DNA of 32,000 nt from Nitrosococcus oceani ATCC 19707 (GCF_000012805.1 NC_007484.1:2220001-2252000); one strand, 5' to 3'; shown: positions 1 to 13,605, counted from the first letter of the stretch. Numbers and translations: made by a program. Notes: generated by a model not told the origin, from the letters alone.

Positions 1-733
1 GAGTGCTAATTATGATAGGCGCCGGGTCCAGCAGGGTCACTACGCGGACACTGCAAATGCGGTTACCACATAGTTCCAATAGCATGGGATGTGGCTTCAA
101 AAGCTCCTGAAAGAGCCACCCTTGTTTCACCAGGGGCTCAAGAGCAGCCACAAAATCCGCTATAGCCATACGCTTCCCATTAACCAGCACCAGTTCATCG
201 CTTTCATGCTCAAGGCGCTCGATGGCGTATACATTTTTACCCCACATTCCAAGCACAGGCTTGGCAACCAAAGGGAATGGCGCCTGTTCACGAAGAAACT
301 GCCCGAGCTGCGCCCCGTTTCGCACTATAGGCAAGGCGCCATGGCGGCGTATCGGATGAAAGAACCCGTACAATTTGGGCGACGGCAATTGCAAGGCTTC
401 AAATAGGCTGCATGCCACCAGCTTGTCGTTCGCAATGGCATGCCATGACCAGGAATCGAACAGCTCCCATAGATCGTACTGCATGTGCCGACCAAGGAAA
501 GTCCGCTTCTGCTCGGGGCTGAAACGCCGATCATCAAATAAACAATACTGATAGTATTCATCAGGAGCCAAGCGGCCCTTGCCCCAGCGCAGGGCAATCA
601 TCTCGGAAGCCTGACCCAGTAGTGACTTCCCAGAGGCCTTTCGCGCCGCCCTGCCATGTTCCCACAGTACCCCCGGCAACGCGGCAAAATCTTTGCAAAA
701 CCGGCTAACGCGCTGGCGCAGTCTCCAAAACAT
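1..733 (-). CDS. ATP-grasp ligase ('sugar-transfer-associated ATP-grasp'/RimK-like), N-terminal part only; continues past the left edge
   Basis: Missing from the ORF track because it is open at the window edge. The reverse-strand frame from ATG 733..731 is stop-free to base 1 (244 codons): MFWRLRQRVSRFCKDFAALPG...GRLAPDEYYQYCLFDDRRFSPEQKRTFLG...ANDKLVACSLFEALQLPSPKLYGFF...PFPLVAKPVLGMWGKNVYAIE...GWLFQELLKPHPMLLELCGNRICSVRVVTL. This matches the ATP-grasp pattern (DK..h...glP.P / h.KP..G..G.gV / QE.l..H / RVVT). The ATG lies 6 nt after the stop of the upstream gene. Confidence 0.6.
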   Translation of the reverse strand, partial: MFWRLRQRVSRFCKDFAALPGVLWEHGRAARKASGKSLLGQASEMIALRWGKGRLAPDEYYQYCLFDDRRFSPEQKRTFLGRHMQYDLWELFDSWSWHAIANDKLVACSLFEALQLPSPKLYGFFHPIRRHGALPIVRNGAQLGQFLREQAPFPLVAKPVLGMWGKNVYAIERLEHESDELVLVNGKRMAIADFVAALEPLVKQGWLFQELLKPHPMLLELCGNRICSVRVVTLLDPAPIIIST

Positions 734-739
734 AACGGC

Positions 740-2329
740 TTAATTGCTACCGTGACTGGCGACCTTAGAGGCGGCAGGCGCCATCGCCAGAATGGACGTT
801 GGATCTCTCAGGCCAATCATAGTAGGGCGATAGCGGTCCCGAAGCTGCGCAACAGCCCAATGAAACTTGTATCCCGTTTGGGAAATCAATAGGCGAAGGG
901 AGATAGGCATTCGCAGGGGCAACCCCAAATTATTGCCCCGCCACACGATCCAATGATACAAAGTAGCCTGCATTCGGCGCAGGCGGTGGCGCATCGATTG
1001 CCGGTTGCGCGATTCAAGTTCTTCCGAAAATGCCATGAGAGCCTGGTGCGATCCTGCCGAAAGCATCGCCCCATTATCCAAGGTTACCCAAAAAGGTTGT
1101 GTAATTGCCTTTTTCTCCTGTCCGAATGCTTCCCGCTCAATGCCAGCCGATTCGGCCAACCGCCGGGGAATCGGCCTATCATAAGTATTTCCAAGGCGCC
1201 AAGGGTCCATTTCAGGCGATTGGGAAATCCGCAGGATCTCGTCGTGGCGGGGCATCGTCAGGACCGGCAACGGCGCGTGGATGAACCCCAATCGCAATCG
1301 AAATTCTCCTAATGAGGCGCCGGAAGGATCCTTGCTCTTGAATTGGGCGCTATCCTCGATGGCTTGTGGTTCGAAATCCCAAATGGTATCTCCCCGAAAT
1401 CCAGTGAAAAATACTGTGCCGGGGAGGTGTTCGGCCAATACCGACATTACTACATCATCACCGCCATTGCCCGTAGCCAGAAACTCAGCTTCGGGAATAC
1501 CTTTATCTTCAAAATAAAGGGAGCGGTCAAATTCCATGACGTTGAAACCAAGTTGCCGCCCGATCTTACCGCCATCATCACAAGCATCCTGGGGATTACC
1601 CACATCGCCGTTAAACTCCATCCGGGCACTGCAAAAAGTTACCGCTTCAGTACCACCACATTTGCGCGCGATGACAGCGCACGCCGGCGAATCATATCCA
1701 GTGGAGACAGTGGCAAGAGGCTTATAGGTGATAGAACGGCGGGAATCACTGGCATTGCCCAGCACCTGTTGCATCGTCCCTTCAAGATAGCCTACGTAAT
1801 CCTCATAGGTGCCAAAATGAGGAAGGGCGGGTGGAGAATCCGTATATATATTAAGGTCGCAGTCAATCCGGAGTCGACGGTAGTACTGAAGCTGAATCCG
1901 CCGACCTTGCGCGGTAGGAACCCACTTTCGGGCACGGTGATAACCTTTTACTACCGACAAAAACTCTAGTTCATACTCCACATGCATTGGATCAATCTCA
2001 TCGTCAAGTGCTGCGAGCAGGTAGATAAATGAGTTGGAAACAAAGAGGCAATCACCATCCCGGCAGAAATGCAAGCGCTCCAGGGTATGACTGCTAGGAA
2101 TGAACACTACTTGATCATCGGAGAGAACAGCCCCGGAACCCAACACTGTTTTGGCGCCTAACAAACCACGCCGATCGTAGGGTCCGGCCCATCCACCTTC
2201 GAAGAAAAAATCCTCTTGACTTTCTACCCAAGGCCCATGCTCTACAGTCACAACCTCTGAACCCCGCTCAAGGCGGGCACACCAAGCTAGCCGCGGCAGT
2301 GCCCCATTCATTTGCATTCTAAACTTCAT
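740..2329 (-). CDS. Uncharacterised AsnB-superfamily-like PP-loop protein, paralog A (no Cys2)
   Basis: 529-aa ORF. The variant PP-loop V-S-T-G-Y-D-S at 1688..1708 follows a hydrophobic strand (YKPLATV) and precedes a helix (PACAVIARKCG). Blocks shared with paralogs B and C: PRLAWCA, VEHG.WVE, FF.EG.W, GSG, ERLH..R.G..L.VSNS...LL, EAEFLA.GNGGDDVV, GEFRLR.GF...P.P, YDRPIPRR.AE.AG..R..FG..KKA. The start M-K-F-R is conserved as M-x-F-[RK] in all three. Confidence 0.75.
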   Translation of the reverse strand: MKFRMQMNGALPRLAWCARLERGSEVVTVEHGPWVESQEDFFFEGGWAGPYDRRGLLGAKTVLGSGAVLSDDQVVFIPSSHTLERLHFCRDGDCLFVSNSFIYLLAALDDEIDPMHVEYELEFLSVVKGYHRARKWVPTAQGRRIQLQYYRRLRIDCDLNIYTDSPPALPHFGTYEDYVGYLEGTMQQVLGNASDSRRSITYKPLATVSTGYDSPACAVIARKCGGTEAVTFCSARMEFNGDVGNPQDACDDGGKIGRQLGFNVMEFDRSLYFEDKGIPEAEFLATGNGGDDVVMSVLAEHLPGTVFFTGFRGDTIWDFEPQAIEDSAQFKSKDPSGASLGEFRLRLGFIHAPLPVLTMPRHDEILRISQSPEMDPWRLGNTYDRPIPRRLAESAGIEREAFGQEKKAITQPFWVTLDNGAMLSAGSHQALMAFSEELESRNRQSMRHRLRRMQATLYHWIVWRGNNLGLPLRMPISLRLLISQTGYKFHWAVAQLRDRYRPTMIGLRDPTSILAMAPAASKVASHGSN

Positions 2330-2473
2330 CGCTGTATCCCCATCTTATCGCTTCACGCTCTATAGGTGATTGCCAATGGCTAGTGTAGCGGGGAATACTA
2401 TAACGCTCCATGTTTTTTTAGCGCCGCCCACGAAAAGTAGCCAGCCAAATAGCCCATGGCACCTTTCAGAGAG

Positions 2474-3949
2474 CTAACTGCTAACCGGCCATAACCGATT
2501 CCGAGCCTGGGAAAATAGAAGTCTCAACTCGTCCCAAATAGGATGACGAAGCGTAATTACAGCCACCATCCAGCCTGCACTGCCGCCGGCAGCACTAATA
2601 ATAAAAAATTGCCAATGGGGCTGCCCAACTGCCGCCGGCATCCCCAGATAGAACAAGGGGAACGCTACTGTGGCAGCGGTAATCAATAAGCTTGCGGCAG
2701 TGGCCTTTAGGTAAACCCTACCCTTGAGACCAATAGCTGAACGCATCAGCAAAGAGGAATAGATCAGCCCCACTACAGCCGGAAAAACCATCGCAAAAGC
2801 AACAACTTCTAACCCATAAGAAACAGCCAGCACCAGCGCCAAAACCGTCGCTAAAAGGGTAGCCACCCTTAGCCGCACCAGCAGGTGTACCGCACCGACC
2901 GCAATCAGCGCCTGCGCGGTAAACGCATACAAAGCATCGACCGCCGCATAGATGGCCAGAATGCGCGCCAGGGGAACCGCAGCATCCCACTGATCGCCGA
3001 ACAGAATTCGTACCACCGGGAACGCCATGATGGCGATAAAAGCATAGCATGGCCACGCGAGGGCGGTAATTAACCCAAGCCCATGGGCATAAAAACCCGC
3101 GACACTCTCTCCCGAGCGGTGCTTGGCCGCCATGTGGGGCAAAATTGCCGGGCTTACCGCCGATAGCACCGTGCGGTCGAAGAGCCGAATAACCCCAAGA
3201 GCTTTGCTGAAGAAACCTACCGCTGCAGCACTCAAATACCGGCCAATGACTACCTCAGGCGCTCCCCGCTGAAACTGGAATGCAATGGTTGCAAGCGTGG
3301 CCCGTCCGCCAAAGCTCATAACCCTCCGCCATTCACAAAATGCTGGGCGCAGGATGAAGTGGCTAGGCCCTAGAATACGCGCCAATACTACTGTGGCAAT
3401 TACCCCAAGAAGTGCGCTCCATGCTAAACTCATAGCGCCAAGTCCTATCCATGCAAACCAAATACCGCTCGCAGCCCGGACAAATTCACTAATGACGCCC
3501 ACCAGGAAAATAGTGGTAAACTGCATTTCCCTGTTCAAGTAAGAGAGAACCACGGAGCCAAACGGAATTAAAACGAAATTAACGGCAAGCACCCGCAGGA
3601 TTCCTGTCACCCTTTCATCCCCATAAAAATCAGCAACCCAAGGCGCTGCAATTGCTAGCACAATGGCCATAGACCAGGCGATACCCAACGTGATTCCGAA
3701 GGCGGACCGGATACGATCTACGGTAAGCTCCTTCTCCTGAACGATGTACCGGCCTACGCCAAAGTCACGCATGGAATGGGCAAGGTTCACGAAGACCACC
3801 GCCATGGAAAAAATGCCGATCTCGGCCGGCGTAAGCAAGCGCGCCAACACCATCGTGGAGACCAAGGAAATCACTAAAACTGCATAGCGGTTCAACGTTG
3901 TAACCACTATCGAGTGCCGAACACCAGGCTCAGTCTTGCTTTCGAGCAT
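2474..3949 (-). CDS. Polysaccharide/oligosaccharide flippase, PST (Wzx-like) family of the MOP superfamily
   Basis: 491-aa polytopic membrane ORF. Its N-terminus (LNRYAVLVISLVSTMVLARLLTPAEIGIFSMAVVFVNLAHSMRDFGVGRYIVQ) matches the usual PST-family signature (laRlLtPedfG...l.d.G...alIq), and about 12+ hydrophobic segments are visible. Confidence 0.75.
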   Translation of the reverse strand: MLESKTEPGVRHSIVVTTLNRYAVLVISLVSTMVLARLLTPAEIGIFSMAVVFVNLAHSMRDFGVGRYIVQEKELTVDRIRSAFGITLGIAWSMAIVLAIAAPWVADFYGDERVTGILRVLAVNFVLIPFGSVVLSYLNREMQFTTIFLVGVISEFVRAASGIWFAWIGLGAMSLAWSALLGVIATVVLARILGPSHFILRPAFCEWRRVMSFGGRATLATIAFQFQRGAPEVVIGRYLSAAAVGFFSKALGVIRLFDRTVLSAVSPAILPHMAAKHRSGESVAGFYAHGLGLITALAWPCYAFIAIMAFPVVRILFGDQWDAAVPLARILAIYAAVDALYAFTAQALIAVGAVHLLVRLRVATLLATVLALVLAVSYGLEVVAFAMVFPAVVGLIYSSLLMRSAIGLKGRVYLKATAASLLITAATVAFPLFYLGMPAAVGQPHWQFFIISAAGGSAGWMVAVITLRHPIWDELRLLFSQARNRLWPVSS

Positions 3950-4125
3950 ACTTTCTTTTGTCCTTTTTCATCCCAGGCCGCAAGCAAGGGGCATGATATG
4001 GCGATAGCGTTGCTATCCCCTGTGTCTGATAATATCCCCGATAATCTGCTAAATGGGGAGATCGCGAGTGGTGCCTACATTCTCGACGCAGCATAGGTTA
4101 TCGTCGAACAACACGAGCACTTAAA

Positions 4126-5628
4126 TTACTTGCGCAGCTCAAGTGAGGTAAGCTTGCCGTATCGGTCCTTAGCTCGCGTTATAGCCCAAGGAAAGATAAA
4201 TCGCCTGAGATAAGTCGGCTTACCCTCGAACCAACCTGCTGTACGCCAAATAGCCGGCTGCCGCTTGGCCCATTCGGCATAACGATTGGCAGCTCGATGA
4301 AACCGCCGATCCAAACCGGCACTCGCGAGAGGAGGTGCTTTTCCTCTCTTCCACCATGCTGATCGATGTTCTTTTAACCAGATTAAAAAATCTTGCAGAG
4401 AATGGGGCGTTAGAAACTCGTCGTAATTATGAATTATTACTGACGCCATACGTTTCTTCATACCGAAGGCTTCTCGAGGGACTCCTTTATTTTCGACGAT
4501 ACGCCGACATATAGGGCGGCTGTATTCATCACTGATATCCCACTGGCTCATCTCGGGATCATTGCTAATCCGACTCACAGCATTGATAGACCGAACTGCC
4601 CAGAACGGGACTGGGCAATGAATAAAACCAGCCCATAGTCTAAATTCAGTTAAGCCCAATCCAGAAGGATCGCCACGAACGACATTGGGACCAAGATGTT
4701 TGGTGCGTTTGCCCCACATTTTATCGCCATGATAACCCGTCAGAAGAACCCGCCCCGCTAAAGTCTCCGCCGCTGCACTAAAGCGCACTTCCTCTCCCAT
4801 ACTATTGGCGGCAATAAAAGGGATTTCCGGTTTCTGCAAATGCCGCCATGCGGTGCCTGACAAAACGATTGGGCGCACACCGAGATAGCCGGCAATGCTT
4901 TCCCCACTATCCTCTTCGTTGAGGTGAGTTCGATCAAAGCAAATCGCTTCATCACACCCAACTCCGCTAGCCAGAGCCATTAGCGTTGGCGAATCATATC
5001 CCGCAGACAGCGTCCCTAACATACGCAAGCGCTTGGGACGGATTGGAGAATAAATATTTTCCGCCAACTGTTCCATGGTGCTTTCCAGAAAACCCAGATA
5101 TTGTCCGAAATTCACAAGCTCCCTATTTACGCTGGGCTTAGGAACCACGGAAGCCATGTTCCCATCCCACCGCACATTATCGAAATAAACAAGCTCGACA
5201 TCTCCTTTAGAAGTTGCTAGGAGCCGTTTGCAATTATCGATACCGTAAACAACCGAATACAGATCTTTGTAGTAAAACCCATACGCTGGATTCAGATCAG
5301 CATCAGCTGCAGATAACAAGCATACGAGTGAATTGGACAGCCATACGCACCTATCCCCTCTTAACATATTCAAACGATCCACTGTCGATCCAGACGAGAC
5401 GAATATTATGGCTGAATTCCTTATCCGCCCCCCGCTTCCCGCAATTACATCGGTTTGATCAAATCCTCCTGCCTCATATGATCCAGGCCATACCGCCTCA
5501 CAAAAGAAATCTGGGGTAATCTCCACCCGTGAACCATGGTAAACAATAACTTCTTGATTACCTTTGCAACATTCCACAAGCCATGCTTGACAGGGCCAGC
5601 TGCTCATTAATTGGTACTTAAAATGCAT
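4126..5628 (-). CDS. Uncharacterised AsnB-superfamily-like PP-loop protein, paralog B (most divergent; no Cys2)
   Basis: 500-aa ORF with L-S-A-G-Y-D-S at 4990..5010. It shares blocks with A and C: VYHGSRVE, FFCEAVWPG, GSGG, DRLNMLRGDRCVWLSNSLVCLLSA, LTGYHGDKMW, TEFRLWAGFIHCPVPF, YSRPICRRIVENKGVPREAFGMKK. The GNGGDD block is replaced by ANSMGEE. Confidence 0.7.
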   Translation of the reverse strand: MHFKYQLMSSWPCQAWLVECCKGNQEVIVYHGSRVEITPDFFCEAVWPGSYEAGGFDQTDVIAGSGGRIRNSAIIFVSSGSTVDRLNMLRGDRCVWLSNSLVCLLSAADADLNPAYGFYYKDLYSVVYGIDNCKRLLATSKGDVELVYFDNVRWDGNMASVVPKPSVNRELVNFGQYLGFLESTMEQLAENIYSPIRPKRLRMLGTLSAGYDSPTLMALASGVGCDEAICFDRTHLNEEDSGESIAGYLGVRPIVLSGTAWRHLQKPEIPFIAANSMGEEVRFSAAAETLAGRVLLTGYHGDKMWGKRTKHLGPNVVRGDPSGLGLTEFRLWAGFIHCPVPFWAVRSINAVSRISNDPEMSQWDISDEYSRPICRRIVENKGVPREAFGMKKRMASVIIHNYDEFLTPHSLQDFLIWLKEHRSAWWKRGKAPPLASAGLDRRFHRAANRYAEWAKRQPAIWRTAGWFEGKPTYLRRFIFPWAITRAKDRYGKLTSLELRK

Positions 5629-5722
5629 AGAATCTATTTACCCTGTTTGTGCGTTAGGATTTAACAAATGCAGAATATTCACCTCTTAAGCTAGCCAGAT
5701 AGGGTTGCTGATTCACCGTCAG

Positions 5723-5880
5723 CTAGAGCAGACGGCTTTTTAGGGCATGCTCGTACTGATGCACCTTATTAAGCCCCAAGGCACCAACCAAACCTGACCA
5801 CGCGTCAACGATGTTTCTAGCGGCGTTGACATCGCGTTGCGAAGATAAGCTGCACTCAGTGGAATCAACCTATGCCGGCG
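5723..5880 (-). pseudogene. tnpB: IS605/IS200-family tnpB (OrfB) C-terminal relic
   Basis: The reverse-strand frame reads ...IKRGNRRHRVDSTECSLSSQRDVNAARNIVDAWSGLVGALGLNKVHQYEHALKSRLL* (stop at 5723..5725). 'RDVNAARNI' is the hallmark C-terminal RuvC-III motif of TnpB/OrfB, and the preceding CxxC zinc-finger half is degraded (ECSLS). The frame is closed by a stop just upstream, so only about 50 codons survive. Confidence 0.5.
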
Positions 5881-6212
5881 GTTCCCGCGCTTAATTTATT
5901 AAGATTAAACAGCCTACAAGGAAAAGCAAGCCGCTCTGAAACTAGCAATTTATTTAATGATTAAGTTAAACTAAATTGTCAGAATAATATTAATCAAAAT
6001 AAATTACACCTTAAAAAGCAAGTCACTTAGAGATAAACTCGGTAATGACCAAATTATTCTGCATGCATTTTCCTGGAAAACCATTCTATTCAGTGGAACA
6101 AAGGCTGATTTTTAATAAAATTTTAATTAATTTTCTCACCAAGGGAAGCGCCAAAGCCCTTATTTCACGGTTATGTATGATCGCATACAAGCGGAAGAGC
6201 TGTTAAGTTCTC

Positions 6213-7958
6213 ATGATTTTTGGCATGCTGACCCTGCAAGCGGAGCATGACGCTAGCCAAATGCTGGCGACGATTTTTAAACGGATCTATCGAGATGGTA
6301 CGCCCGATCAAATCCGAACGTTTGACTTTCGCCTGGCTATCACGACTATACCAGACACACCCAACAGCCGGCCTCGAATAAATATAATCCCTTTTTCGAC
6401 GGGCCATCTCATCGTCCTCGCCGATATCCTCATCGGAGAATACGTAAGCCATTTAGAAAAAGCCGATACACTTTCCCCAGATCTTCCTTTAGCCTGGTCA
6501 CTACCGGGAAGATGGATCGCTATAACCGTGCCCAACGATATAAATAAACCTATCCAGTGGGCCTCAGACCCTATCGGAGCACAATGGCTCTATTTTACGG
6601 AAACCTCCGATGGGCTGGTATTTTCCGATTGTTTTTGGGCTGTTGCTAAGACGGTTAGCAGAAGCCAGGGCATTGACCCAAACGCTCTTCGCCACGCTTT
6701 GGTCCTAGGTTACAACCTGAGAGAGGAAACCATCATCCCTAGCATAAAGCTTGCCCCTGGAGGCTGCATTTACGAATGGGACGCTGGCGATTTTCGTATT
6801 ATCCGTAGCCATCAGCTTGAATACGGAGATGCTATGGCCGGAGCGACCGAAGCTGAGAAGATTGCTCAAGTTGAGGCTGCCTTTCATGAAGCCGCTCTTT
6901 CGTGGAAGAAGGTTCTACCGGCCCGGACTGCTCTCTCTTTATCGGCTGGCCTAGACTCTCGAACCGCCTTAGCTTATCTCCAGCGAGCTGGCGTAGAGGT
7001 ATCTTTCTACACCTTCGGACAACCCGGCAGCACCGAAGTGATAGGAGCCCAGTCCATTGCACAGCGTGTTGGTTGCAGCACTCGCCTCTTTAAGATTCCA
7101 GATGCCTCTTGGAATGACTGGGAAACAAACATCCAGACGCTGGGTGCTATCGGCCCATTACAGCAGTCAGGGTGGGCACATAGCTGGCGGGCAATGTTAG
7201 CTAACAAAGCAGATGCGGTCGTGATCGGCTACTTAGGGGATGCACTGACGGGAAAACACCTTAGCTCGAAGCAATTTGACCGAAGCGACTGGGTCAATTA
7301 TTGGACTCATTGGAGCCTAAATTGGGAATGGCAGGAATGGCCTGGACTCCGAAAAAAATGGCGCAAAGATCTCTCTAATAACCTTGCCGCTAGCTTTCGG
7401 CAAATTATCCATAAACTAGAGGTTGCCTTCCCGCACCAGCAAGCTTTTCACCTTGATTTCTATTGCCGTCAACGCCGCTGGGTAGCCTCACAGCCTAATG
7501 ATATAGGAGCGGCGCTGCTCCCCGTATGCTTCTTCTATCATCCAGCCATCTGGAAAGTATGGGCAAATCTACCCTTATCTGATCTAGAACGCCAGACCCT
7601 TTACAGGCGCACAAACTACCAGTTATTCCCCGATCTCTTTCGCCGCCCGGTATCGCCCACGGAAGAGCTGTTTCAGCGGTCTTTCCGAAAGTTTACCCGA
7701 CTTCTCAGGAGAACAAATACTGATCTACTGCCGTCGGAACGCCCGCGCGTAATCGATAGATGGCGAGCGCTAGAAATAAACCAGCAACAAATCATTGTCC
7801 AATTGGAACACAACCGTGAGCCGCTAGAAGAGGTCGTAGATGTTGATTTCGTCCTAAAGAGGATGGGCGCCTTCAAGTCACAACGACTATCCGAAACAGA
7901 GTGTGCGATGATCATGAGAATAGTGAATGCATCCCATCTCGTCTCGGCTATTATCTAG
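6213..7958 (+). CDS. Asparagine-synthetase-like (AsnB-family) ATP-dependent amidoligase lacking the N-terminal Cys nucleophile
   Basis: 581-aa ORF with PP-loop L-S-A-G-L-D-S at 6939..6959, followed by RTALAYLQRAGVEVSFYTFG. An AsnB-like block sits upstream (DPIGAQWLYFTETSDGLVFSDCFWAVA, cf. RD.fG.kPLYY...g.l.FaSE.kAl), and VVIGYLGDALTG is later. The N-terminus MIFGM has no Cys2. The start codon is uncertain because no clear SD is present. Confidence 0.7.
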   Translation: MIFGMLTLQAEHDASQMLATIFKRIYRDGTPDQIRTFDFRLAITTIPDTPNSRPRINIIPFSTGHLIVLADILIGEYVSHLEKADTLSPDLPLAWSLPGRWIAITVPNDINKPIQWASDPIGAQWLYFTETSDGLVFSDCFWAVAKTVSRSQGIDPNALRHALVLGYNLREETIIPSIKLAPGGCIYEWDAGDFRIIRSHQLEYGDAMAGATEAEKIAQVEAAFHEAALSWKKVLPARTALSLSAGLDSRTALAYLQRAGVEVSFYTFGQPGSTEVIGAQSIAQRVGCSTRLFKIPDASWNDWETNIQTLGAIGPLQQSGWAHSWRAMLANKADAVVIGYLGDALTGKHLSSKQFDRSDWVNYWTHWSLNWEWQEWPGLRKKWRKDLSNNLAASFRQIIHKLEVAFPHQQAFHLDFYCRQRRWVASQPNDIGAALLPVCFFYHPAIWKVWANLPLSDLERQTLYRRTNYQLFPDLFRRPVSPTEELFQRSFRKFTRLLRRTNTDLLPSERPRVIDRWRALEINQQQIIVQLEHNREPLEEVVDVDFVLKRMGAFKSQRLSETECAMIMRIVNASHLVSAII

Positions 7959-8073
7959 TTTTTTCCAGTGCTAGAAAGCGAGCGAGTGGATGGCTAATTC
8001 AGCTTGTATTTCGTGCAGCTTTCGGGTATCCCTTCTCCTCGTAGGGAGTTGCCATAACCTAGTAGAAGGTTGC

Positions 8074-9642
8074 TCAATTAGAATCGGAGACGAATTTCAG
8101 CTCGGTAGAAGCATATCGTTTACGAGTTTTTTCTATAGCCCAATGGAAAAGCAAGCTATACTCCCTACCTGAATAGGTTCCTGATGCTGGACGGGGGACA
8201 TCAAGATTTAATATCTCTACAAGCGAGCTAAGCTGGGCTTTGGAAAGATACCATCCCAAGGTTCCGTACCGTATCCTCCGAAATAGTTGAACCCTCACCT
8301 CCTCCGCCATGCGCCGTACGATAGCTTGCTCATGAGGTTGACTTCTAAGCTTTCTTTCTCGAAACTGGAGAAAATCATCCCAAGACGCTTCAGTAAACAT
8401 TGTCGAAATATTGCTAGCAATCCACGTAGGTTGTGTGACAGCCTTCTTGATATTACCAAAAGACTGCCTTGACACTCCCGCTTCTTCAGCTATTCGCCGC
8501 GGGATAGGCCGGTCATACCAGCCACCTAACCGGAATTTAGCCATCTCATGGGATAATGAAATTTGATTAAGCTCAGGCCGTCTGTACATAGTTAATAGGG
8601 GAATGGGTAAATTCAGGAAACCTACCCGTAGCCGAAATTCAGACATAGAACCACCGAGGCCACCGGTTGTAGACCGCCCGTAGCGATGGTGGTTGACATT
8701 TTTAGTGGTGACCTTCCATAAGCCATCGCCGAAATCACCCTTGACGAAAATTCGCTTCTCAAGCGCGGTACTCAAGGGCGCATAAACAACATCGTCGCCA
8801 CCGTTTCCGCTAGCCAGGAATTCAGCCTCGGGGTACTGTTCCAATTTAAGATATGCTTCCCGTTCAATTGGCAACAAGGTAACTTCTAGTGCCTTGGCAA
8901 TATCCGTTGCATCCTCCATATGTCCATGCCGCGAATCAGCAAACGTTACTGCTTCTGTACAGCCAATTGACTTAACAAGCGCGGTACATGCTGGGGAATC
9001 ATAACCCGTTGAAAGCGAGCTTAGGGGAGTATACTGAATAGTTCGTGCCGAATCCGTAGCATTATCGTAAATAGCACGAATAATTTTAACGAGGTAGTCA
9101 ATATACCCCGTATAATCGGTAAACGCAGGAGGCGTGGGGCGAGATATTCGCCGCTGAACTAGGTCATGGCCAACCGCAATGCCATCATGATAGTGAAGAG
9201 TAGCCTGGTGCTTTTCATCGAGGGGAACTGAAGTTAGCGCTTTGTTATGCCCTTGCAGAATTGAGAAAAAATCTGTTTCGTAAAAGCCATAACTACCTAA
9301 TAGCTGTTGTGAACTAGCCTCTAGCAGGTAACAGAAGGAGTTAGAAATATACAATACATTGCCATTGCGTATGCTATGTAACCGCTCGGTCGGGTAAGTT
9401 GCAGGAAAAAAAAATACTTCGTTAGCTCTAAGAGCACCGCCCGATCCTAATAAGACTTCAGAATCGTGAAGTTCGCCCTTGGAAAAATCGCCTAACCAAG
9501 CACCCTCAACAAAAAAAGTAGCTGTCTGTTCTACCCAAGAACCGTGCTCGACGACTACTGTATCATTCCCTTTAGTGATGCTCGCACACCACGCCAAGCG
9601 GGGAATTGTAGCGTTTTCACGATAACAAAAACGAAAACTCAT
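8074..9642 (-). CDS. Uncharacterised AsnB-superfamily-like PP-loop protein, paralog C (no Cys2)
   Basis: 522-aa ORF with L-S-T-G-Y-D-S at 8995..9015. It is colinear with paralog A along its whole length: IPRLAWCAS, VVVEHGSWVEQ, FFVEGAW, LLGSGGAL, ERLHSIRNGNVLYISNSFCYLLEA, DSARTIQYTPLSSLSTGYDSPAC, TEAVTF, PEAEFLASGNGGDDVV, SEFRLRVGF.N.PIPLLTM, YDRPIPRRIAEEAGVSRQSFGNIKKAVTQPTW. Confidence 0.75.
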   Translation of the reverse strand: MSFRFCYRENATIPRLAWCASITKGNDTVVVEHGSWVEQTATFFVEGAWLGDFSKGELHDSEVLLGSGGALRANEVFFFPATYPTERLHSIRNGNVLYISNSFCYLLEASSQQLLGSYGFYETDFFSILQGHNKALTSVPLDEKHQATLHYHDGIAVGHDLVQRRISRPTPPAFTDYTGYIDYLVKIIRAIYDNATDSARTIQYTPLSSLSTGYDSPACTALVKSIGCTEAVTFADSRHGHMEDATDIAKALEVTLLPIEREAYLKLEQYPEAEFLASGNGGDDVVYAPLSTALEKRIFVKGDFGDGLWKVTTKNVNHHRYGRSTTGGLGGSMSEFRLRVGFLNLPIPLLTMYRRPELNQISLSHEMAKFRLGGWYDRPIPRRIAEEAGVSRQSFGNIKKAVTQPTWIASNISTMFTEASWDDFLQFRERKLRSQPHEQAIVRRMAEEVRVQLFRRIRYGTLGWYLSKAQLSSLVEILNLDVPRPASGTYSGREYSLLFHWAIEKTRKRYASTELKFVSDSN

Positions 9643-10258
9643 ACCCTACTCACTAGCATTTTTCTTTGGCTCGATAGCCATCTGGAAGAAAGGAAGCGCT
9701 CACCTCAAGGAGATTCTCACATAGCGAAGGAGAGCACTAATTGGAATTTTACTAGTCGGTGAGATAAATCCTGAATAGTGAATATACCAGAGGAAAATAC
9801 CATGGGCTAGAATAACAGAAGAAGACATGTATGAATAGCTGCACCACAGCCCTTACCGAATAGCGCAATGATAAAATCATTGGTGATGGTAGTTTGAGAA
9901 ACTAAGAAGATAATGGCCATAAGCTGACCAAAATACAAAAATATGATCAAAAACCTTCTTCTATATTTGACTTAATTCACAAAGGCTGACAGGAAATTAC
10001 CTATAAAAACCACCCTGTGTTAACGGCTTAATAATGACTTTACCATAAGAACTATTCTAACAGACAGTTTTAAGTATGATCGGGAAGATAAACTCCTTGA
10101 CTAATGATCTTAATTAAAGATATATGGTCCACCCCAGCATCGAGGGCAAAAATATAGATAAATTATACAGCGAAGCTTTAAAGAATCAAAGATAAATCTA
10201 GCAGCGGGGGAGTACTCAGCCGATTACGAAGCCTGCAGAAAACCGGCTAAAATAGCCT

Positions 10259-10288
10259 GAGCGGAGTCCATCACTCGGACTCACGCTC
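10259..10288 (-). terminator. Stem-loop (possible relic intrinsic terminator) in the decayed region
   Basis: gagcg-gagtcc [atcactc] ggactc-a-cgctc forms 11 bp with one bulged base. On the minus strand it is followed by a partial U-run (aggctatttta) and spans the stop of a decayed reading frame (...GFGVEINERESE*). Confidence 0.25.
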
Positions 10289-10689
10289 GTTAATCTCTAC
10301 TCCAAAACCGTAGTAAATCGTCTCTAACATAAAGCGAACCAACACATAAGTAGCTAATACGCCCTAAACGATAGCAATCGGCAAACACCAGCCATCAAAG
10401 ACAGTTATTCGCTCGCGTTTCCCTGCAATGACAATGGCTAGGCCGCCCGGCTAAATATCTAAACAACCCTTTGTCATCAGGCGCAAATTCAGAGCTTGTA
10501 ATAGTTCTAAAAAAGAGATTTATATCGCCGCTATCCTCACTGCCAACAAAAAGCTCCCTCTTTTAATATCAATTATTATAACCAACTTGTCTGCACCGGG
10601 AACTTCAACTGTATACCAGGACAGAGCTAATCGCATCAGAGAAGCGGTAAACAAACACAACCAACCTAATTATTGGAACTCCAAAACAT

Positions 10690-10878
10690 ATGTTTTATTT
10701 TCACGCTGGTATGCACAAAACCAGTACCACTTTTATGCAAAAAAATGTCCTTCCACAATTCCACGGTATTAAATATCTGCCTCCCTGGTCACCTTTTGAT
10801 TACTTTCTTCGCTTGCATGATAAAGAGAATTACTTGTACTCCAATGAAAGATTAGCAAGGTTACTGTGGGCTCCCTAG
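10690..10878 (+). pseudogene. N-terminal fragment of a sulfotransferase-fold-like gene (decayed)
   Basis: 62-aa ORF MFYFHAGMHKTSTTFMQKNVLP... whose H-x-G-M-x-K-T-[SG]-T-T start resembles the 5'-PSB/P-loop-like N-terminus of sulfotransferase-fold proteins. After the stop, fragments continue in other frames (..EQRISGLFPAVAHFNKF*, FRCHDGFIVSS..) up to the IS end. The call is weak. Confidence 0.3.
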
Positions 10879-11004
10879 CCCCAAACTGACTCCAGCTTAG
10901 AACAGCGTATTAGTGGCTTATTTCCAGCCGTCGCGCATTTTAATAAGTTTTAGATGCCACGATGGATTTATAGTATCTTCTTTAATAAATAATTAATCCT
11001 TAGG

Positions 11005-11610
11005 TAACCCCCTGGCTGCGCCGGAGGGACTAGCATAGGTTTGACTGAAGCTATTATGGTTTCCCTAGCCTTCGCATTTCGACCAAGAAGTGTGAAGGAG
11101 CCACCTATGCCAGACTACAAGCGTCTGACCCATACGAAATGGGGCTGCAAATACCATGTAGTTTTTATTCCTAAGAAGAGACGGGAGTGGATTTACGGCA
11201 ACTTACGGAAATATTGGGGAGAGATTTTTCGCGCGTTAGCCACTCGCAGAAGGGTGGAGATTGTAGAGGGGCCTTTGATGAGAGACCATGTTCATATTTG
11301 CCTCAATATACCTCCAAAGTATTCGGTTTCTCAGGTGGTGGGCTATCTCAAGGGTAAGAGTGCCATTGCGATAGCGAGAAGGTTTCGTGGAAAGCAAAGG
11401 AAGTTCAATGGGGAACATTTCTGGGCATGAGGGTATTTTGTGTCCACGGTAGGTCTCGATGAGAGGGTAGCGCGAGAGTACCATTCGGAACCAAGAGAAG
11501 AATGATGAGTATAGAGATCAGTTGAAGCTTGGTATGTGAGCGTCTTGGGCGCTATAAAAGCCCTTTGAGGGCGTCACACAATAAGCCTCCGGCTTTGCCG
11601 GAGGTCCTTT
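11005..11610 (+). mobile_element. IS200/IS605-family element (IS200-type, tnpA only), inactivated
   Basis: A tnpA pseudogene is flanked by two similar subterminal hairpins that share the 3' arm GCCGGAGG. The left hairpin is cccctggc-tgc-gccggagg (11009..11027, imperfect). The right hairpin is cctccggc-ttt-gccggagg (11586..11604, perfect 8 bp). Element boundaries are approximate. Confidence 0.6.
11107..11539 (+). pseudogene. tnpA: IS200-type Y1 (HUH) transposase TnpA with an in-frame TGA and a 1-nt frameshift
   Basis: ATG at 11107 is preceded by GAAGGAG. The sequence reads MPDYKRLTHTKWGCKYHVVFIPKKRR...RDHVHICLNIPPKYSVSQVVGYLKGKSA...GEHFWA, with the HUH motif (H-V-H) at 11287..11295. The TGA at 11428..11430 sits where family members have Arg (W-A-R-G-Y). 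The frame then reads GYFVSTVGLDERVAREY. An extra base near 11482 breaks the expected YIRNQEKNDE...LKLGM* tail, which ends at 11539. Confidence 0.8.
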
Positions 11611-11774: not shown

Positions 11775-12722
11775 TTAATCTCTACGAGGCAAAGCCAACA
11801 ACCCTAGTAGCACAGCAAACCACAATGTGGCCAATCGTATAAACAGGGTACAGGCAACGGCTTGAGCCTCTCCCATGCCATTTAACAGCAACAGCCCTAT
11901 CATCGTAACCTCAGCGCTACCCAGCCCTCCCGGCAAAAAACTCAGTGCCCCAACAAGCATAGAAAAGGCATAAATAAACACCGCCTCAATGAGGCTAATC
12001 TCCCCACCCATCCAATTAGCCACATAATATAGTCCTAGCCCTTCAGCACCCCAGGCAAAAAAGCCCAAGGAAATAGCATAAACCATCGTGGAAAAAGCAA
12101 AACAGCGGCGGAAATGCAAAACCATCTCGATGATCGAGATTAAAAAACTCCTCAGCCGCGGCCTAGAGAAACGCTCTACCCAGGTCTCTATTCCTCGGAG
12201 CCAACGGGGAATATGCAATAATATAAGTCCCATGACCAAGGCTATTCCAAGGCCAAGAATAATTGGCTGAGCCCTCTCATGACGCCAAGCTCCTGCCGCT
12301 ATCAAAATAAGCACCGCGATGAGATCGCAAAGACGTTCCGCAAAGAAGGCTGCTAAGCTTTTCGAGTAAGGTACCCCATGGTGTTTTAAAAACACGCTCC
12401 GAAGCATTTCCCCCGCTTTACCTGGGGTAGTGGTCAACGCAAATCCAGCCAAATAGATACGAAGGCTTGGTTCCAGAGAAAGCGGGTGCCCAAGTAACTG
12501 CAGATAATGCTGCCAACGTACGAAACGCAATCCATAGTTCACTAAGGAAAGCCCTAATACAATCACAGTACCCCAAAAACCGACAGCGCCTATAGTCTGT
12601 AATACTTCACGCCAACCGCCCCAGAGGGAAACGCCTAAGTAACCGGCGGCGGAAAACGCCACCGAGAGCAAGAACACCCGATAACGCCACCCCTGCAACG
12701 ATTTCAATTCGGTACTTGCCAT
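11775..12722 (-). CDS. Flippase-like / lysylphosphatidylglycerol-synthase-TM-domain family (UPF0104) membrane protein
   Basis: 315-aa polytopic ORF with the family-typical loop LTTTPGKAGEMLRSVFLK and C-terminal FLPGGLGSAEV. It is the last gene of the pentose-donor operon, 10 nt after the UbiA-like gene. Confidence 0.6.
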   Translation of the reverse strand: MASTELKSLQGWRYRVFLLSVAFSAAGYLGVSLWGGWREVLQTIGAVGFWGTVIVLGLSLVNYGLRFVRWQHYLQLLGHPLSLEPSLRIYLAGFALTTTPGKAGEMLRSVFLKHHGVPYSKSLAAFFAERLCDLIAVLILIAAGAWRHERAQPIILGLGIALVMGLILLHIPRWLRGIETWVERFSRPRLRSFLISIIEMVLHFRRCFAFSTMVYAISLGFFAWGAEGLGLYYVANWMGGEISLIEAVFIYAFSMLVGALSFLPGGLGSAEVTMIGLLLLNGMGEAQAVACTLFIRLATLWFAVLLGLLALPRRD

Positions 12723-12732
12723 GACCGGGATA

Positions 12733-13605
12733 CTAGCGGATCAACCAAAACGTAAGGGCCATCCAGCCTACCACCGAAATCAGGATATGGGGGTCGCGCA
12801 TCAAATCACGAGAAGGCTCTCCGCCCTTTCCCCGGTGGTGGAGTAGAAAAATATAACGAAAGATAGCGTACATTACGAATGGCAATGTATAGATAAGATT
12901 TTCAGTTTGGTGAACCCGGATCGTTTCCGGACTCATGGTATAGAGGCCATACGACATCAAGACACAAGCCGCAGTCACGGTAATCATTTTATCAAGCAGA
13001 ATAGGGCTGTAATAAGCCAACACCCGACGGTGTTCTGCCTTGCCTTCTCGTAGCGCCATTATCTCAGCGCGACGCTTAGCAAAACCTAAAAACAAAGTCA
13101 ACATTAGAGAACACAACACTAACCATTGAGAAGGGGGAATACCCACACCAACCGTGCCTGCTAAAATACGCAATAAAAACCCCGCAGCAATAATAAACAC
13201 ATCTAAAAGCACCACATGTTTAAGCTTAAATGAATAAGCAAGATTCATAAAAGCGTAGCCCAGCAGGATTAACAGCCCAGCTTGGGAAACCCATAAACCC
13301 AGTCCCAAACTAAGCATAAGCAAGATAACCGCCAAGCGGACGGCCACCCCTACTCCTACAATACCGGCAGCGAGGGGGCGGTGCTGCTTGATAGGATGGT
13401 TACGATCACTTTCCCGATCAGTCAGATCGTTAATGATATAGATAGCACTGGAAAGTAGAGAAAAAGCTACAGCCATAGCGATCACTTGAGCAATCAAGGG
13501 AAGATCGCTCCAAGCATGGCTGAAGAACATGCCCACGAAAACAAAGCTATTTTTCAGCCATTGCTGAGGCCGCATAAGATGCAACAAAGCGAGGGGATGA
13601 TTCAA
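12733..13605 (-). CDS. UbiA-family polyprenyl-phosphate 5-phosphoribosyltransferase (decaprenyl-phosphate phosphoribosyltransferase-like)
   Basis: 290 aa, starting MRPQQWLKNSFVF, with an Asp-rich motif INDLTDRESDRNHPIKQHRPLAAG (NDxxDxxxD) and a second block LLDVFIIAAGFLLRILAG. This pattern matches the Rv3806c-type subfamily rather than quinone prenyltransferases. The track start is TTG at 13605 (GGAG 9 nt upstream); an alternative ATG lies at 13575. Confidence 0.75.
   Translation of the reverse strand: MNHPLALLHLMRPQQWLKNSFVFVGMFFSHAWSDLPLIAQVIAMAVAFSLLSSAIYIINDLTDRESDRNHPIKQHRPLAAGIVGVGVAVRLAVILLMLSLGLGLWVSQAGLLILLGYAFMNLAYSFKLKHVVLLDVFIIAAGFLLRILAGTVGVGIPPSQWLVLCSLMLTLFLGFAKRRAEIMALREGKAEHRRVLAYYSPILLDKMITVTAACVLMSYGLYTMSPETIRVHQTENLIYTLPFVMYAIFRYIFLLHHRGKGGEPSRDLMRDPHILISVVGWMALTFWLIR

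Follow-up and report, generated by a model that had tools for sequence, protein, structure and literature searches.

Genes of the locus

The window analysed here is a 32,000-nucleotide stretch of the Nitrosococcus oceani ATCC 19707 genome (NC_007484.1:2220001-2252000). Three genes on its minus strand, within a slime-polysaccharide locus, encode uncharacterised AsnB-like proteins of one family: paralogue A (Noc_1941, 740..2329, 529 aa), paralogue B (Noc_1943, 4126..5628, 500 aa) and paralogue C (Noc_1945, 8074..9642, 522 aa). The Noc_1941 protein is 100% identical to the ORF at 740..2329. An initial annotation of the window described these ORFs as alignable along their full length, and BLASTP gave end-to-end alignments of A with C (37% identity, E 9e-118), A with B (30%, E 3e-72) and B with C (31%, E 6e-63). 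The M-x-F-[RK] start that it reported is likewise common to all three (MKFR, MHFK and MSFR in A, B and C, respectively). Mutual identity among the copies is 27-38%, with differences at pocket-proximal positions. B diverges most and has its nearest relatives in loci L014 (49%) and L067 (44%), and C matches the family HMM at E 1.5e-187. The three genes diverged long ago within a single uncharacterised family of the AsnB/beta-lactam-synthetase superfamily. The automatic UniProt name for Noc_1943 and Noc_1945 is 'Asparagine synthetase domain-containing protein'.

Between A and B lies a MOP/Wzx-type flippase gene, Noc_1942 (2474..3949, minus strand; Polysacc_synt_3, E 5.4e-60; NF007773, E 4.7e-45). 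Noc_1944 (6213..7958, plus strand) encodes a divergent AsnB-like protein of 581 aa (TIGR01536, E 1.4e-6) which lacks Cys2, carries the PP-loop SAGLDS at residues 244-249 and aligns with the window's canonical AsnB at 9e-7 by BLASTP. Noc_1944 is rare, with only 26 database relatives. Because genes of its type also occur in EPS loci without the triplicated family, we regard it as an independent module. An ATP-grasp ligase gene of the ATPgrasp_ST type is represented by its 5' part at 1..733 (minus strand), the rest lying beyond the window start; the PF14397 match of this fragment (E 1.7e-5) is below the curated cutoff. Full-length ATPgrasp_ST homologues adjoin family genes in five other loci (E 2.5e-27 to 3.9e-49). 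Paralogue A ends in TAA (742..740), and the ATG of the ATP-grasp gene (733..731) follows 6 nt later; the two genes are probably co-transcribed. A canonical AsnB-type amidotransferase of an XrtA/PEP-CTERM cassette is found at 30490..32000 (minus strand; Asn_synthase, E 4.2e-79), its N-terminus beyond the window end, and is a true member of the glycan-locus/XrtA-associated type (TIGR03108, E 8e-78). The flippase, the AsnB-like gene at 6213..7958, the 6-nt spacing and the canonical AsnB had all been called correctly from the DNA. The accompanying count of six ATP-dependent carboxylate-activating ligases was too low, as an AMP-binding ligase (TIGR03098, 21402..23018) provides a seventh.

The family forms approximately 2,400 clusters at 50% identity across many phyla and is rare, with 331 hits in 185,579 species genomes. 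Among 85 loci, 68 hold one copy, 16 hold two and only the window holds three; additionally, one metagenomic contig carries three tandem copies. Triplication in one locus is exceptional and a single copy is the norm.

Fold and superfamily placement

AF2 models of A (pLDDT 92.7, pTM 0.92) and B (pLDDT 88.1, pTM 0.89) were compared with solved structures using Foldseek. The top match of each was beta-lactam synthetase (E 7e-10 for A, 1.8e-11 for B), followed for both by carbapenam synthetase, TsnB9, E. coli AsnB and human ASNS. All matches had a probability of 1.00 and spanned approximately 480-600 alignment columns, thus covering both domains, with modest TM-scores (0.42-0.49). The best matches were to beta-lactam synthetase (1jgt, 1m1z, 1mbz) and the carbapenam synthetase CarA (1q15, 1q19). 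Asparagine synthetase (E. coli 1ct9; human 6gq3, 8sue) has the same two-domain fold, and the hydroxyamidotransferase TsnB9 (7ylz) strongly matched B (E 1.5e-8). The structural search recovered AsnB, beta-lactam synthetase and carbapenam synthetase, all of which the initial annotation had named for comparison. The predicted fold is the two-domain AsnB architecture, and among solved structures it comes closest to the beta-lactam and carbapenam synthetases, which are Cys-less.

The family had no match in Pfam, NCBIfam or the PDB sequences, and PF00733, TIGR01536 and TIGR03108 failed to match it even at E<=1; hhalign aligned the family profile with neighbouring AsnB-type proteins (Prob 89.8%, E 1.8e-6, 428 columns). 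STGYDS was placed onto SGGVDS of the AsnB-type proteins and TGFRGDTIW onto their TGEGSDELF (TGxxGD onto AsnB SGEGSDE), a correspondence that takes in the PP-loop as well as the G-x-G-x-D motif. The proposed relationship to AsnB and the adenine-nucleotide hydrolases is thus borne out by the fold and the PP-loop alignment. The family had not been recognised as a described one; it is a new, uncharacterised family inside a known superfamily, a good lead and no new kind of biology.

For both A and B, beta-lactam and carbapenam synthetases outrank true asparagine synthetases, and the family shares with them an Ntn-like N-domain without the Cys nucleophile and a PP-loop adenylating C-domain. One reading of this likeness is intramolecular cyclisation, in which a carboxylate would be adenylated and a lactam or isopeptide ring closed within a single substrate. 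We consider it very unlikely. The rank above AsnB may reflect only a shared loss of glutaminase features, the genes of clavam, carbapenem and lasso pathways (B-protease/RRE, precursor peptide) are absent from the neighbourhoods surveyed, and NCBIfam models of lasso and macrolactam cyclases (NF033535, NF033561) do not match the family. The lasso/macrolactam cyclases and TsnB9 are AsnB-superfamily members with altered chemistry, and the family differs from them also in having no RiPP or trichostatin-type neighbours. Unlike the beta-lactam and carbapenam synthetases, to which it is only 12-14% identical with no sequence-level match, the family has S-x-G-Y-D-S in place of SGGxDS, a C-terminal block of its own, a highly conserved N-domain, and a context of glycan and peptide-ligase genes rather than beta-lactam gene clusters. 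These closest solved relatives make intramolecular beta-lactam bonds, not intermolecular amides, an observation that runs against reading the family as amide ligases.

Conserved residues

The PP-loop reads STGYDS in A (S209-T-G-Y-D-S214, 1688..1705), SAGYDS in B (4990..5007) and STGYDS in C (8995..9012), all on the minus strand. The S-[TA]-G-Y-D-S motif had been seen in each copy, but with ranges one codon too long. In the AF2 models it is flanked by a strand (E203-207) and a helix (H213-223). Conservation was counted in 88 diverse homologues from many phyla, using the residue numbers of paralogue A. S209, G211 and D213 are invariant (88/88), Y212 occurs in 87/88 and S214 in 83/88; S-x-G-Y-D-S is therefore kept across the family. 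D251, G310, E342 and R344 are also invariant or nearly so. G310-F-R-G-D314 of A (1388..1402, minus strand), within TGxxGDxxW, is a candidate ribose and Mg2+ site by hhalign; G310 is present in 88/88 homologues and D314 in 72/88, with G or E replacing the latter in 14/88. Judging from hhalign and spacing, D314 is a candidate Mg ligand and K406 (87/88) a candidate catalytic lysine.

K406 falls in a family-specific C-terminal block, Y383-DRPIPRR…E393…G396…R399…FG…K406-K-A in A (1106..1183, minus strand), in which Y383, P386, R389, R390, E393 and G396 are invariant among the 88 homologues. The three proteins had been described as sharing this block as a private feature; YDRPIPRR…E…G…R…FG…KKA is family-wide, and B has YSRPICRR in place of the exact YDRPIPRR. 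The upstream N-domain block, FF.EG.W…GSG…ERL…VSNS…LL, is found family-wide as well, and hhalign repeats the alignment with AsnB first made by hand.

No N-terminal nucleophile is conserved among the 88 members: residue 2 is variable, in agreement with the reported lack of Cys2, and 26/88 carry V, L, A, G or I in place of C17. In this the family differs from asparagine synthetase, and its N-domain is approximately 25-45 residues shorter than that of asparagine synthetase and AsnB-type proteins. The N-terminal domain is a shortened, strongly conserved Ntn-type (class II glutaminase-like) domain from which the nucleophile is absent; it is followed by a C-terminal PP-loop ATP-pyrophosphatase domain. 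Because of the fold matches, the motif alignment and the absence of a conserved nucleophile, we assign the family to the glutaminase-less adenylating enzymes of the AsnB superfamily, and we infer the adenylation chemistry.

B departs from the family at the near-invariant sites G287 (N), G289 (M), D384 (S) and P388 (C). AsnB-superfamily enzymes are oligomers and tandem pairs are common (16/85 loci), so at least one of the three copies could be a catalytically dead scaffold or specificity subunit, such as a heterodimer partner. This is highly improbable, as A, B and C all retain the PP-loop, D251, G310, D314, E342, R344, R389, R390, E393 and K406, and the B model is confident with the same architecture as A.

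Gene neighbourhoods of homologues

Neighbouring genes were identified by crude ORF calling and local HMMs, and a locus was taken as well sampled when at least 15 kb was covered (n=48). Recognisable glycan genes occur in at least 29 of these 48 loci (∼60%), and on four of seven looked-up contigs encoding a family member. A survey of homologue neighbourhoods for Wzx, ATP-grasp or XrtA genes had been suggested; it is peptide-type ligases (ATP-grasp, MurF-like, FemAB-like), rather than Wzx or XrtA, that are most strongly linked to the family. Such ligase genes account for 20/279 genes within two positions of a family member versus 5/553 from the fourth position outwards (odds ratio 8.5, Fisher p 1.8e-6, ∼8-fold), statistics which take in related, non-independent loci, e.g. 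two from Desemzia and one from Pisciglobus. The commonest specific neighbour is ATPgrasp_ST, adjoining the family in Gammaproteobacteria, Sphingomonadaceae, Gemmatimonadota and Firmicutes. In L008 a tandem family pair is followed by a MurF-like gene, in L067 two family copies flank a Mur-ligase/DD-carboxypeptidase fusion, and in L066 a LAL-type ATP-grasp abuts the family gene. A conserved cassette of Firmicutes and Bacteroides runs from Bac_transf through FemAB-like, PLP enzyme and one or two family genes to a PylC-like ATP-grasp, a LegC/PseC-type aminotransferase and then glycosyltransferases.

Unrelated neighbours were found in 18/48 well-sampled loci, and L085 and L086 also have heterogeneous non-glycan neighbours; methyltransferases are the commonest genes among these. 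Additionally, one member is joined to a membrane FA_hydroxylase domain (a true fusion or a mis-call), and the MurF-like and DD-carboxypeptidase neighbours recall the chemistry of peptidoglycan. The family could therefore act not on glycans but on a general envelope or metabolic substrate (for instance an aminolipid, a small peptide metabolite or a precursor of peptidoglycan), with only some of its genes happening to lie in glycan loci. We judge this unlikely, given the glycosyltransferase, Wzx, Wzy or amino-sugar genes in most well-sampled loci, a rarity which fits an accessory decoration better than housekeeping, and the interleaving of the N. oceani copies with a Wzx gene. For approximately 40% of the homologues sampled, glycan genes could not be recognised in the vicinity, which also runs against the amide-ligation reading.

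UDP-sugar dehydrogenases produce uronic acids. One lies directly beside the family gene in L074, but just 5 of approximately 80 loci have one within 10 kb; therefore a sugar-acid carboxylate is not specifically indicated. This scarcity also counts against the amide-ligation reading. It bears, too, on ammonia-dependent amidation, in which an adenylated uronic or ulosonic acid carboxylate would react with free NH3 to give a primary carboxamide, a reaction also suggested for canonical AsnB-type enzymes of glycan loci, but here with the glutaminase absent. The AsnB-like fold and motifs, the location in glycan loci beside Wzx, and the missing Cys nucleophile, which means that any nitrogen comes from outside the enzyme, are all consistent with such a reaction, and AsnB-type genes of glycan clusters have been assigned to amide or amidino modifications (PMC6120980). 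Nevertheless, we find it rather unlikely: besides the scarcity of dehydrogenases, it leaves unexplained both why peptide ligases of the Ddl/LAL/MurF/FemAB type are so closely linked and why an N-domain without a glutaminase role is strongly conserved.

Proposed function

On balance, we lean towards ligases that act in the cytoplasm during surface-polymer assembly and use ATP to join amino-acid, peptide or amine groups through amide bonds. A role in decoration is probable because the family adjoins peptide-type ligases (ATPgrasp_ST, PylC/Ddl-like, LAL-type ATP-grasp, MurF-like and FemAB-like), usually inside Wzx/Wzy-type glycan loci. The enzyme would bind MgATP in the cytoplasm via S-x-G-Y-D-S and the TGxxGD aspartate and adenylate a carboxylate to give acyl-AMP and PPi. 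An amine not derived from glutamine hydrolysis would then attack the acyl-AMP, yielding an amide and AMP. The amide probably belongs to a decoration (an amino acid, a short peptide or an amine) on a surface-polymer building block, added before Wzx flipping. A, B and C would each perform a step of their own or differ in specificity, and the probably co-transcribed ATP-grasp ligase and Noc_1944 would add further bonds. The initial annotation proposed a multi-step machinery forming amides on repeat-unit carboxyls before flipping, which is plausible; the glycan context agrees in ∼60% of loci, but a uronic or ulosonic carboxylate is not specifically indicated, UDP-sugar dehydrogenases being rare.

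Comparable ligations are known from other folds. The C-terminal ATP-grasp domain of Cj1438 from C. jejuni uses ATP to amidate a capsule sugar acid (PMC11800379), which makes it a functional analogue. Such capsule ATP-grasp amidoligases (also ATPgrasp_TupA and ATPgrasp_ST) are unrelated in fold to the family and use an acyl-phosphate intermediate, as opposed to the acyl-AMP proposed here. The Mur ligases (MurC-F) also differ in fold and have an acyl-phosphate mechanism. By analogy, the family may share their logic of stepwise ATP-dependent amino-acid addition to a sugar-linked carboxylate, and in L008 and L067 the family genes have MurF-like genes as direct neighbours.

A triplicated AsnB-like family beside a flippase gene

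Three members of the family are encoded on the minus strand of the window: Noc_1941 (paralogue A, 740..2329, 529 aa; the ORF is 100% identical to Noc_1941), Noc_1943 (paralogue B, 4126..5628, 500 aa) and Noc_1945 (paralogue C, 8074..9642, 522 aa). Interleaved with them are Noc_1942 (2474..3949, minus), encoding a MOP/Wzx flippase (Polysacc_synt_3, E 5e-60), and Noc_1944 (6213..7958, plus), encoding a separate, divergent AsnB-like protein of 581 aa. An ATP-grasp gene of the ATPgrasp_ST type (733 down to 1, minus) has its ATG 6 nt past the stop codon of A and is truncated at the window start. Its 244-aa fragment scores 24.6 bits against PF14397 (cutoff 31.4); full-length homologues reach 96-168 bits with local HMM iteration.

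As the initial annotation had proposed, the three ORFs are homologous end to end, with 37% identity between A and C (E 9e-118), 30% between A and B (3e-72) and 31% between B and C (6e-63). The M-x-F-[RK] starts read MKFR, MHFK and MSFR, and the PP-loops STGYDS, SAGYDS and STGYDS lie at nt 1688..1705, 4990..5007 and 8995..9012, respectively. Both the N-terminal block (FF.EG.W, GSG, ERL…VSNS…LL) and the C-terminal block (YDRPIPRR…E…G…R…FG…KKA) are common to all three, the latter opening with the variant YSRPICRR in B. The count of six carboxylate-activating ligases in the window has to be raised to seven, the additional one being an exosortase-associated AMP-binding ligase at 21402..23018. Automatic naming has already given Noc_1943, Noc_1944 and Noc_1945 the UniProt title 'Asparagine synthetase domain-containing protein'; in NCBI they are 'hypothetical'. 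None of the papers searched by locus tag names Noc_1940 to Noc_1945.

The predicted fold is that of the AsnB superfamily

None of the three proteins matched a Pfam or NCBIfam model, even at E≤1. Searches of PDB sequences returned only noise from a single sequence, a 3-sequence profile or a 61-sequence profile, and with the last no AsnB-type chain appeared at E≤10. We built an AlphaFold2 model of A from the 61-sequence alignment (pLDDT 92.7, pTM 0.92), in which the PP-loop motif lies between strand 203-207 and helix 213-223 (A numbering is used throughout). Foldseek comparison of this model with the PDB ranked beta-lactam synthetase (BLS) first (E 7e-10 to 9e-9), followed by carbapenam synthetase (CarA; 8e-7) and then by human ASNS, TsnB9 and E. 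coli AsnB (about 1e-6 to 1e-5). These top matches had prob 1.00 over about 480-600 columns and covered both domains; much weaker matches were confined to the PP-loop domain (NAD and GMP synthetases) or the Ntn domain (GlmS and PurF). B, the most divergent paralogue, gave the same ranking from its own model (pLDDT 88.1): BLS 1.8e-11, CarA 5e-11, TsnB9 1.5e-8 and AsnB 3.6e-7. TM-scores were modest (0.42-0.49), as expected for two domains differing in orientation.

Using hhalign, we compared the family with aligned AsnB-type proteins whose genes lie near family genes (Prob 89.8%, E 1.8e-6, 428 columns). LATVSTGYDS paired with VFLSGGVDS and FFTGFRGDTIW with VLTGEGSDELF, while ERLH…LFVSNS…LL fell on PLYY…VFGSE…, reproducing the alignment originally made by hand. 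Only this alignment of AsnB-type neighbours gave a signal; single AsnB sequences were uninformative in hhalign. An HMM of non-family AsnB-like proteins scored family members at no more than 22 bits, weak but in the correct region, which is supportive and not decisive. Thus, from hhalign together with AlphaFold2 and Foldseek, the structural half of the initial reading stands.

The modelled fold places the family in the AsnB superfamily, with an Ntn-type beta-sandwich joined to an adenine-nucleotide alpha-hydrolase (PP-loop) domain, but the family lacks the defining marks of every characterised AsnB branch. Unlike glutamine-hydrolysing asparagine synthetase (TIGR01536 / PF00733 with GATase_7), it has neither the N-terminal Cys nor the model matches. 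The lasso-peptide and macrolactam cyclase models NF033535 and NF033561 match none of A, B and C, and the XrtA/PEP-CTERM amidotransferase model TIGR03108 matches, within the window, only the canonical AsnB gene at 30490..32000. Family members also occur in loci without an XrtA cassette, in Firmicutes, Bacteroides and Planctomycetota. Whereas BLS and CarA sit in clavam or carbapenem clusters, the neighbours of family genes are glycan, ligase or unrelated genes. The family is therefore best described as new, a variant of a known superfamily kind, and not as categorically new.

The first rank of BLS and CarA among the Foldseek matches raises intramolecular lactam formation, as in these closest solved relatives. 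However, a RiPP, lasso or beta-lactam context was sought in the neighbourhoods and rejected, as none was found, nor was a leader peptidase/RRE with a precursor gene seen beside family genes; we consider lactam formation highly unlikely. Ring closure by BLS involves a Tyr348/Glu382 dyad and Lys443. The family position equivalent to BLS 348 is variable (F, Y, H, R and others), and K406 is a candidate counterpart of the lysine by spacing only.

Adenylation motifs are conserved and the glutaminase nucleophile is missing

Conservation was counted over 88 full-length family members. Within the PP-loop, S209, G211 and D213 are each present in 88/88, Y212 in 87/88 and S214 in 83/88, so that the motif can be written S-[STRK]-G-Y-D-S, a variant in which the second Gly of SGGxDS is replaced. 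Other conserved residues of the synthetase domain are N192, D251 (87), G310, W317, E342, R344, Y383, P386, R389, R390, E393, G396, R399 and K406 (87). In hhalign, TGxxGD aligns with TGEGSD, the type of motif that supplies the acidic Mg2+ ligand in the superfamily, which makes D314 the candidate counterpart. G310 is invariant; at position 314, 72 of the 88 proteins have D, 7 have E and 7 have G.

Residue 2 is variable (R, K, H, E and others), and the Cys2 nucleophile of the glutaminase is absent. In B. subtilis PurF the N-terminal nucleophile is freed by propeptide removal. The only conserved Cys, the near-invariant C17 of the sequence 'AWCA', was considered as such a propeptide-exposed nucleophile and discarded, since 26 of the 88 proteins, paralogue B included, have V, L, A, G or I there. 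With no N-terminal nucleophile conserved, the domain is not a class II glutaminase. Nevertheless, its strong conservation (W16, G32, W47, S98-N99-S100, Y119, G129) suggests that it has a function, possibly substrate recognition.

The catalytic-looking residues are intact in A, B and C, which argues against any of them being a dead or scaffold copy. Only B departs from the family at several near-invariant positions, and even so we regard loss of activity as a very improbable explanation.

The family is discrete, widespread and rarely triplicated

At least 767 relatives were retrieved by a word-indexed search, each of them annotated 'hypothetical' and none with a Pfam domain. When 1.84 billion cluster representatives were searched exhaustively with the HMM, 2,362 scored at E≤1e-3 and 2,048 at E≤1e-10, indicating a discrete family that does not grade into canonical AsnB. 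The family HMM covers the N. oceani proteins over their full length (E 5e-209 for A, 4e-150 for B and 2e-187 for C), and the motifs S-x-G-Y-D-S, TGxxGDxxW, EFRLR and YDRPIPRR…KKA are present in all three, allowing for the B variant. A scan of 185,579 species, one genome per species, yielded 331 matches. Carriers include Gammaproteobacteria, Alpha- and Betaproteobacteria, Acidobacteriota, Gemmatimonadota, Verrucomicrobiota, Chloroflexota, Bacteroides, Planctomycetota (Ca. Brocadia), Firmicutes (Desemzia, Pisciglobus, Anaeromonas, Schnuerera, Pelosinus) and one archaeal MAG. A tblastn search of the plasmid collection found no family match.

We counted copies per locus at 85 loci: 68 have one, 16 have two and only the window has three; the metagenomic contig L087 carries three tandem copies. 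N. watsonii retains orthologues of A, B and C. The closest outside relatives are 45% identical to A, 41% to C and 49% to B (a Chromatiaceae MAG protein), compared with 27-38% among the paralogues themselves. Each copy is thus nearer to proteins of other organisms than to its own neighbours, so the N. oceani copies are old. Family pairs at other loci are 44-56% identical.

For strain AFC27 of N. oceani, the only records of the Noc_1941 orthologue are two short fragments, P0266 (171 aa) and P0268 (185 aa), pointing to a frameshift, a pseudogene or faulty assembly in that strain. Domain fusions were sought as a functional clue, and the sole case, the metagenomic protein P0182 (975 aa), may be a gene-calling artefact: its family part runs into a C-terminal FA_hydroxylase membrane domain (PF04116, E 5e-22), and this second part has its own starting Met, so that two gene calls may have been merged.

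Family genes are linked to peptide-type ligases

Around each homologue, we scored as glycan genes those for GT2, GT4, Wzx, Wzy, Bac_transf, a DegT-type aminotransferase, an epimerase or a sulfotransferase. Sampling reached 15 kb or more at 48 loci; a recognisable glycan gene is present at 29 of these, and 22 have two or more. These and the neighbour counts are lower bounds, as ORF calls were crude and HMMs were iterated locally. Pre-annotated contigs show typical Wzx/Wzy loci. Homologues therefore do not lie mostly outside glycan loci, although the minority that does is substantial. A substrate other than a glycan would suit the 18 loci, together with L085 and L086, whose neighbours are unrelated, but the 29/48 well-sampled loci with a glycan gene speak against it and we judge it unlikely.

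SAM-methyltransferases are the sole recurrent family among those unrelated neighbours. In many loci, glycan loci and others alike (L003, L005, L008, L085, L087, L088 and L089), a SAM-methyltransferase gene (Methyltransf_11/23/25 or TylF) sits immediately upstream of a family gene or of a Noc_1944-type gene, and some are fused to an APH-type kinase or lie beside one.

Of the Pfam domains matched by immediate neighbours, ATP-grasp is the commonest, and ATPgrasp_ST flanks the family in six loci from four phyla, the window included. A MurF-like ligase follows a tandem family pair in L008, an L-amino-acid-ligase-type ATP-grasp gene overlaps the family gene in L066, and in L067 an apparent Mur-ligase/DD-carboxypeptidase fusion lies between two family copies. 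Firmicutes and Bacteroides share a conserved cassette: Bac_transf, a FemAB-like protein, a PLP enzyme (D-Cys desulfhydrase/ACC deaminase family), one or two family genes, a PylC/Ddl-like ATP-grasp enzyme, a LegC/PseC-type aminotransferase, GT4 and GT2. Ligase genes make up 20/279 of genes within two positions of a family gene and 5/553 of those at least four positions away (odds ratio 8.5, Fisher p 1.8e-6, indicative only since the loci are phylogenetically non-independent). Glycan genes are spread evenly around family genes, and other AsnB-like genes show no significant enrichment next to them (p 0.26).

The L067 fusion (1703-3817, from a Rhizobiaceae MAG) is a single ORF by a crude call, with Mur-ligase M and C domains and Peptidase_S11, a D-Ala-D-Ala carboxypeptidase domain; the flanking family copies are 87% identical. 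AsnB-type proteins of about 580-610 aa adjoin family members at L003:11540-13288, L005:13187-14968 and L040:11821-13575. They start M-T-[VI]-x-A-G where canonical proteins start M-C-G-I-x-G, with Thr for the Cys nucleophile, and retain the canonical SGG[LM]DS PP-loop. Additionally, a 700-950 aa protein without a Pfam domain (cluster c9; L006, L007, L008, L010, L017, L019 and also L087:1379-4141) is repeatedly encoded close to family genes where soil gammaproteobacterial MAGs have EPS loci, and one locus often has it twice.

Proposed reaction and role

Judging from the fold and motifs, MgATP would bind at the PP-loop and the TGxxGD aspartate and a carboxylate would then be adenylated. An external amine would attack the acyl-AMP to give an amide, a route implying no glutaminase or ammonia channel. 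The chemistry that the family most likely performs is familiar, and the family is a well-defined set of candidates for glycan decorations that are poorly understood as a class. Predicted to be soluble, the proteins would act in the cytoplasm, where any ATP-consuming step has to occur; a glycan would therefore be modified before Wzx flips it. A uronic-acid substrate, one of those first suggested, was rejected because UDP-sugar dehydrogenases occur within 10 kb of family genes in only 5 loci; on the same count, NH3-dependent formation of uronamides appears unlikely. Given the linkage to Ddl, LAL, MurF and FemAB types, decoration with amino acids or short peptides is a better fit than plain carboxamides. 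We favour, with moderate confidence, the view that the family consists of ATP-dependent amide ligases decorating glycan units with amino acids or short peptides. N. oceani would then have up to five such steps, through the three old paralogues, the ATP-grasp enzyme and Noc_1944.

More tentatively, and with low probability, the family could be a previously unrecognised third class of stepwise amino-acid ligases beside Mur ligases and ATP-grasp enzymes, built on the AsnB/acyl-AMP scaffold. It would then equip glycan units, linked to a lipid or a nucleotide, with side chains of amino acids or short peptides. The conserved, nucleophile-less N-domain would serve in acceptor or donor recognition, and the three paralogues, the ATP-grasp enzyme and Noc_1944 would add successive residues to yield a peptide-decorated, peptidoglycan-like exopolysaccharide.

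Amide-linked amino acids and amines are chemically common on bacterial surface sugars, and to our knowledge the enzymes that install them are mostly unknown. The family offers concrete candidates: about 2,400 clusters in many phyla, with intact adenylation motifs and coupled to peptide-type ligases. It would be a further glutaminase-less AsnB branch beside the beta-lactam and carbapenam synthetases, the lasso cyclases and TsnB9, and new Pfam and NCBIfam models would be justified, with which thousands of 'hypothetical proteins' could be named. For N. oceani, the prediction is an unusually heavily amidated or peptide-decorated PEP-CTERM-associated exopolysaccharide. In other systems, an unrelated ATP-grasp enzyme carries out ATP-dependent amidation of capsule sugars (PMC11800379), and amide or amidino modifications of glycans have been attributed to AsnB-type genes (PMC6120980).

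Noc_1944 and the remainder of the window

Noc_1944 is a rare Cys-less AsnB-type protein; it has only 26 relatives, its PP-loop reads SAGLDS, and it matches PF00733 proteins remotely (E 8e-9). It was dismissed as an obligate partner of the family, because its homologues occur in PEP-CTERM-type EPS loci without family members; it is an independent module.

Between the triplicated module and the rest of the locus lies 9643..11430. It comprises 1.4 kb of AT-rich DNA (GC 0.40-0.42), in which no ORF reaches 100 aa, and then a fragment of an IS200/IS605-type Y1 transposase at 11041..11430 (Y1_Tnp E 1.5e-27, covering positions 2-98 of the 121 in the profile). This region may be a junction of acquisition or rearrangement. 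The right half of the window is an exosortase A cassette (TIGR03097, 03098, 03099, 03100 and 03101, plus the TIGR03108-like AsnB), and the window's PEP-CTERM protein is a weak match (Pfam E 0.0025). An Rfam scan of the window found nothing. Between the PEP-CTERM protein gene and a sulfotransferase gene lies a 454-aa ORF (17655..19019, minus) with no Pfam or NCBIfam match.

Lastly, 11775..16327 (minus) holds, inside this gammaproteobacterial EPS locus, a cassette resembling the mycobacterial decaprenyl-phospho-arabinose donor pathway. It encodes a UbiA protein resembling decaprenyl-phosphate phosphoribosyltransferase, which exceeds the NF008977 cutoff with 272 bits, together with a HAD phosphatase, an SDR that may be DprE2-like and a DprE1-like FAD oxidase, which at 452 bits falls short of the NF053785 cutoff of 500. 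An LPG_synthase_TM membrane protein is encoded next to the cassette. The cassette suggests a polyprenyl-phosphate pentose donor for the EPS.
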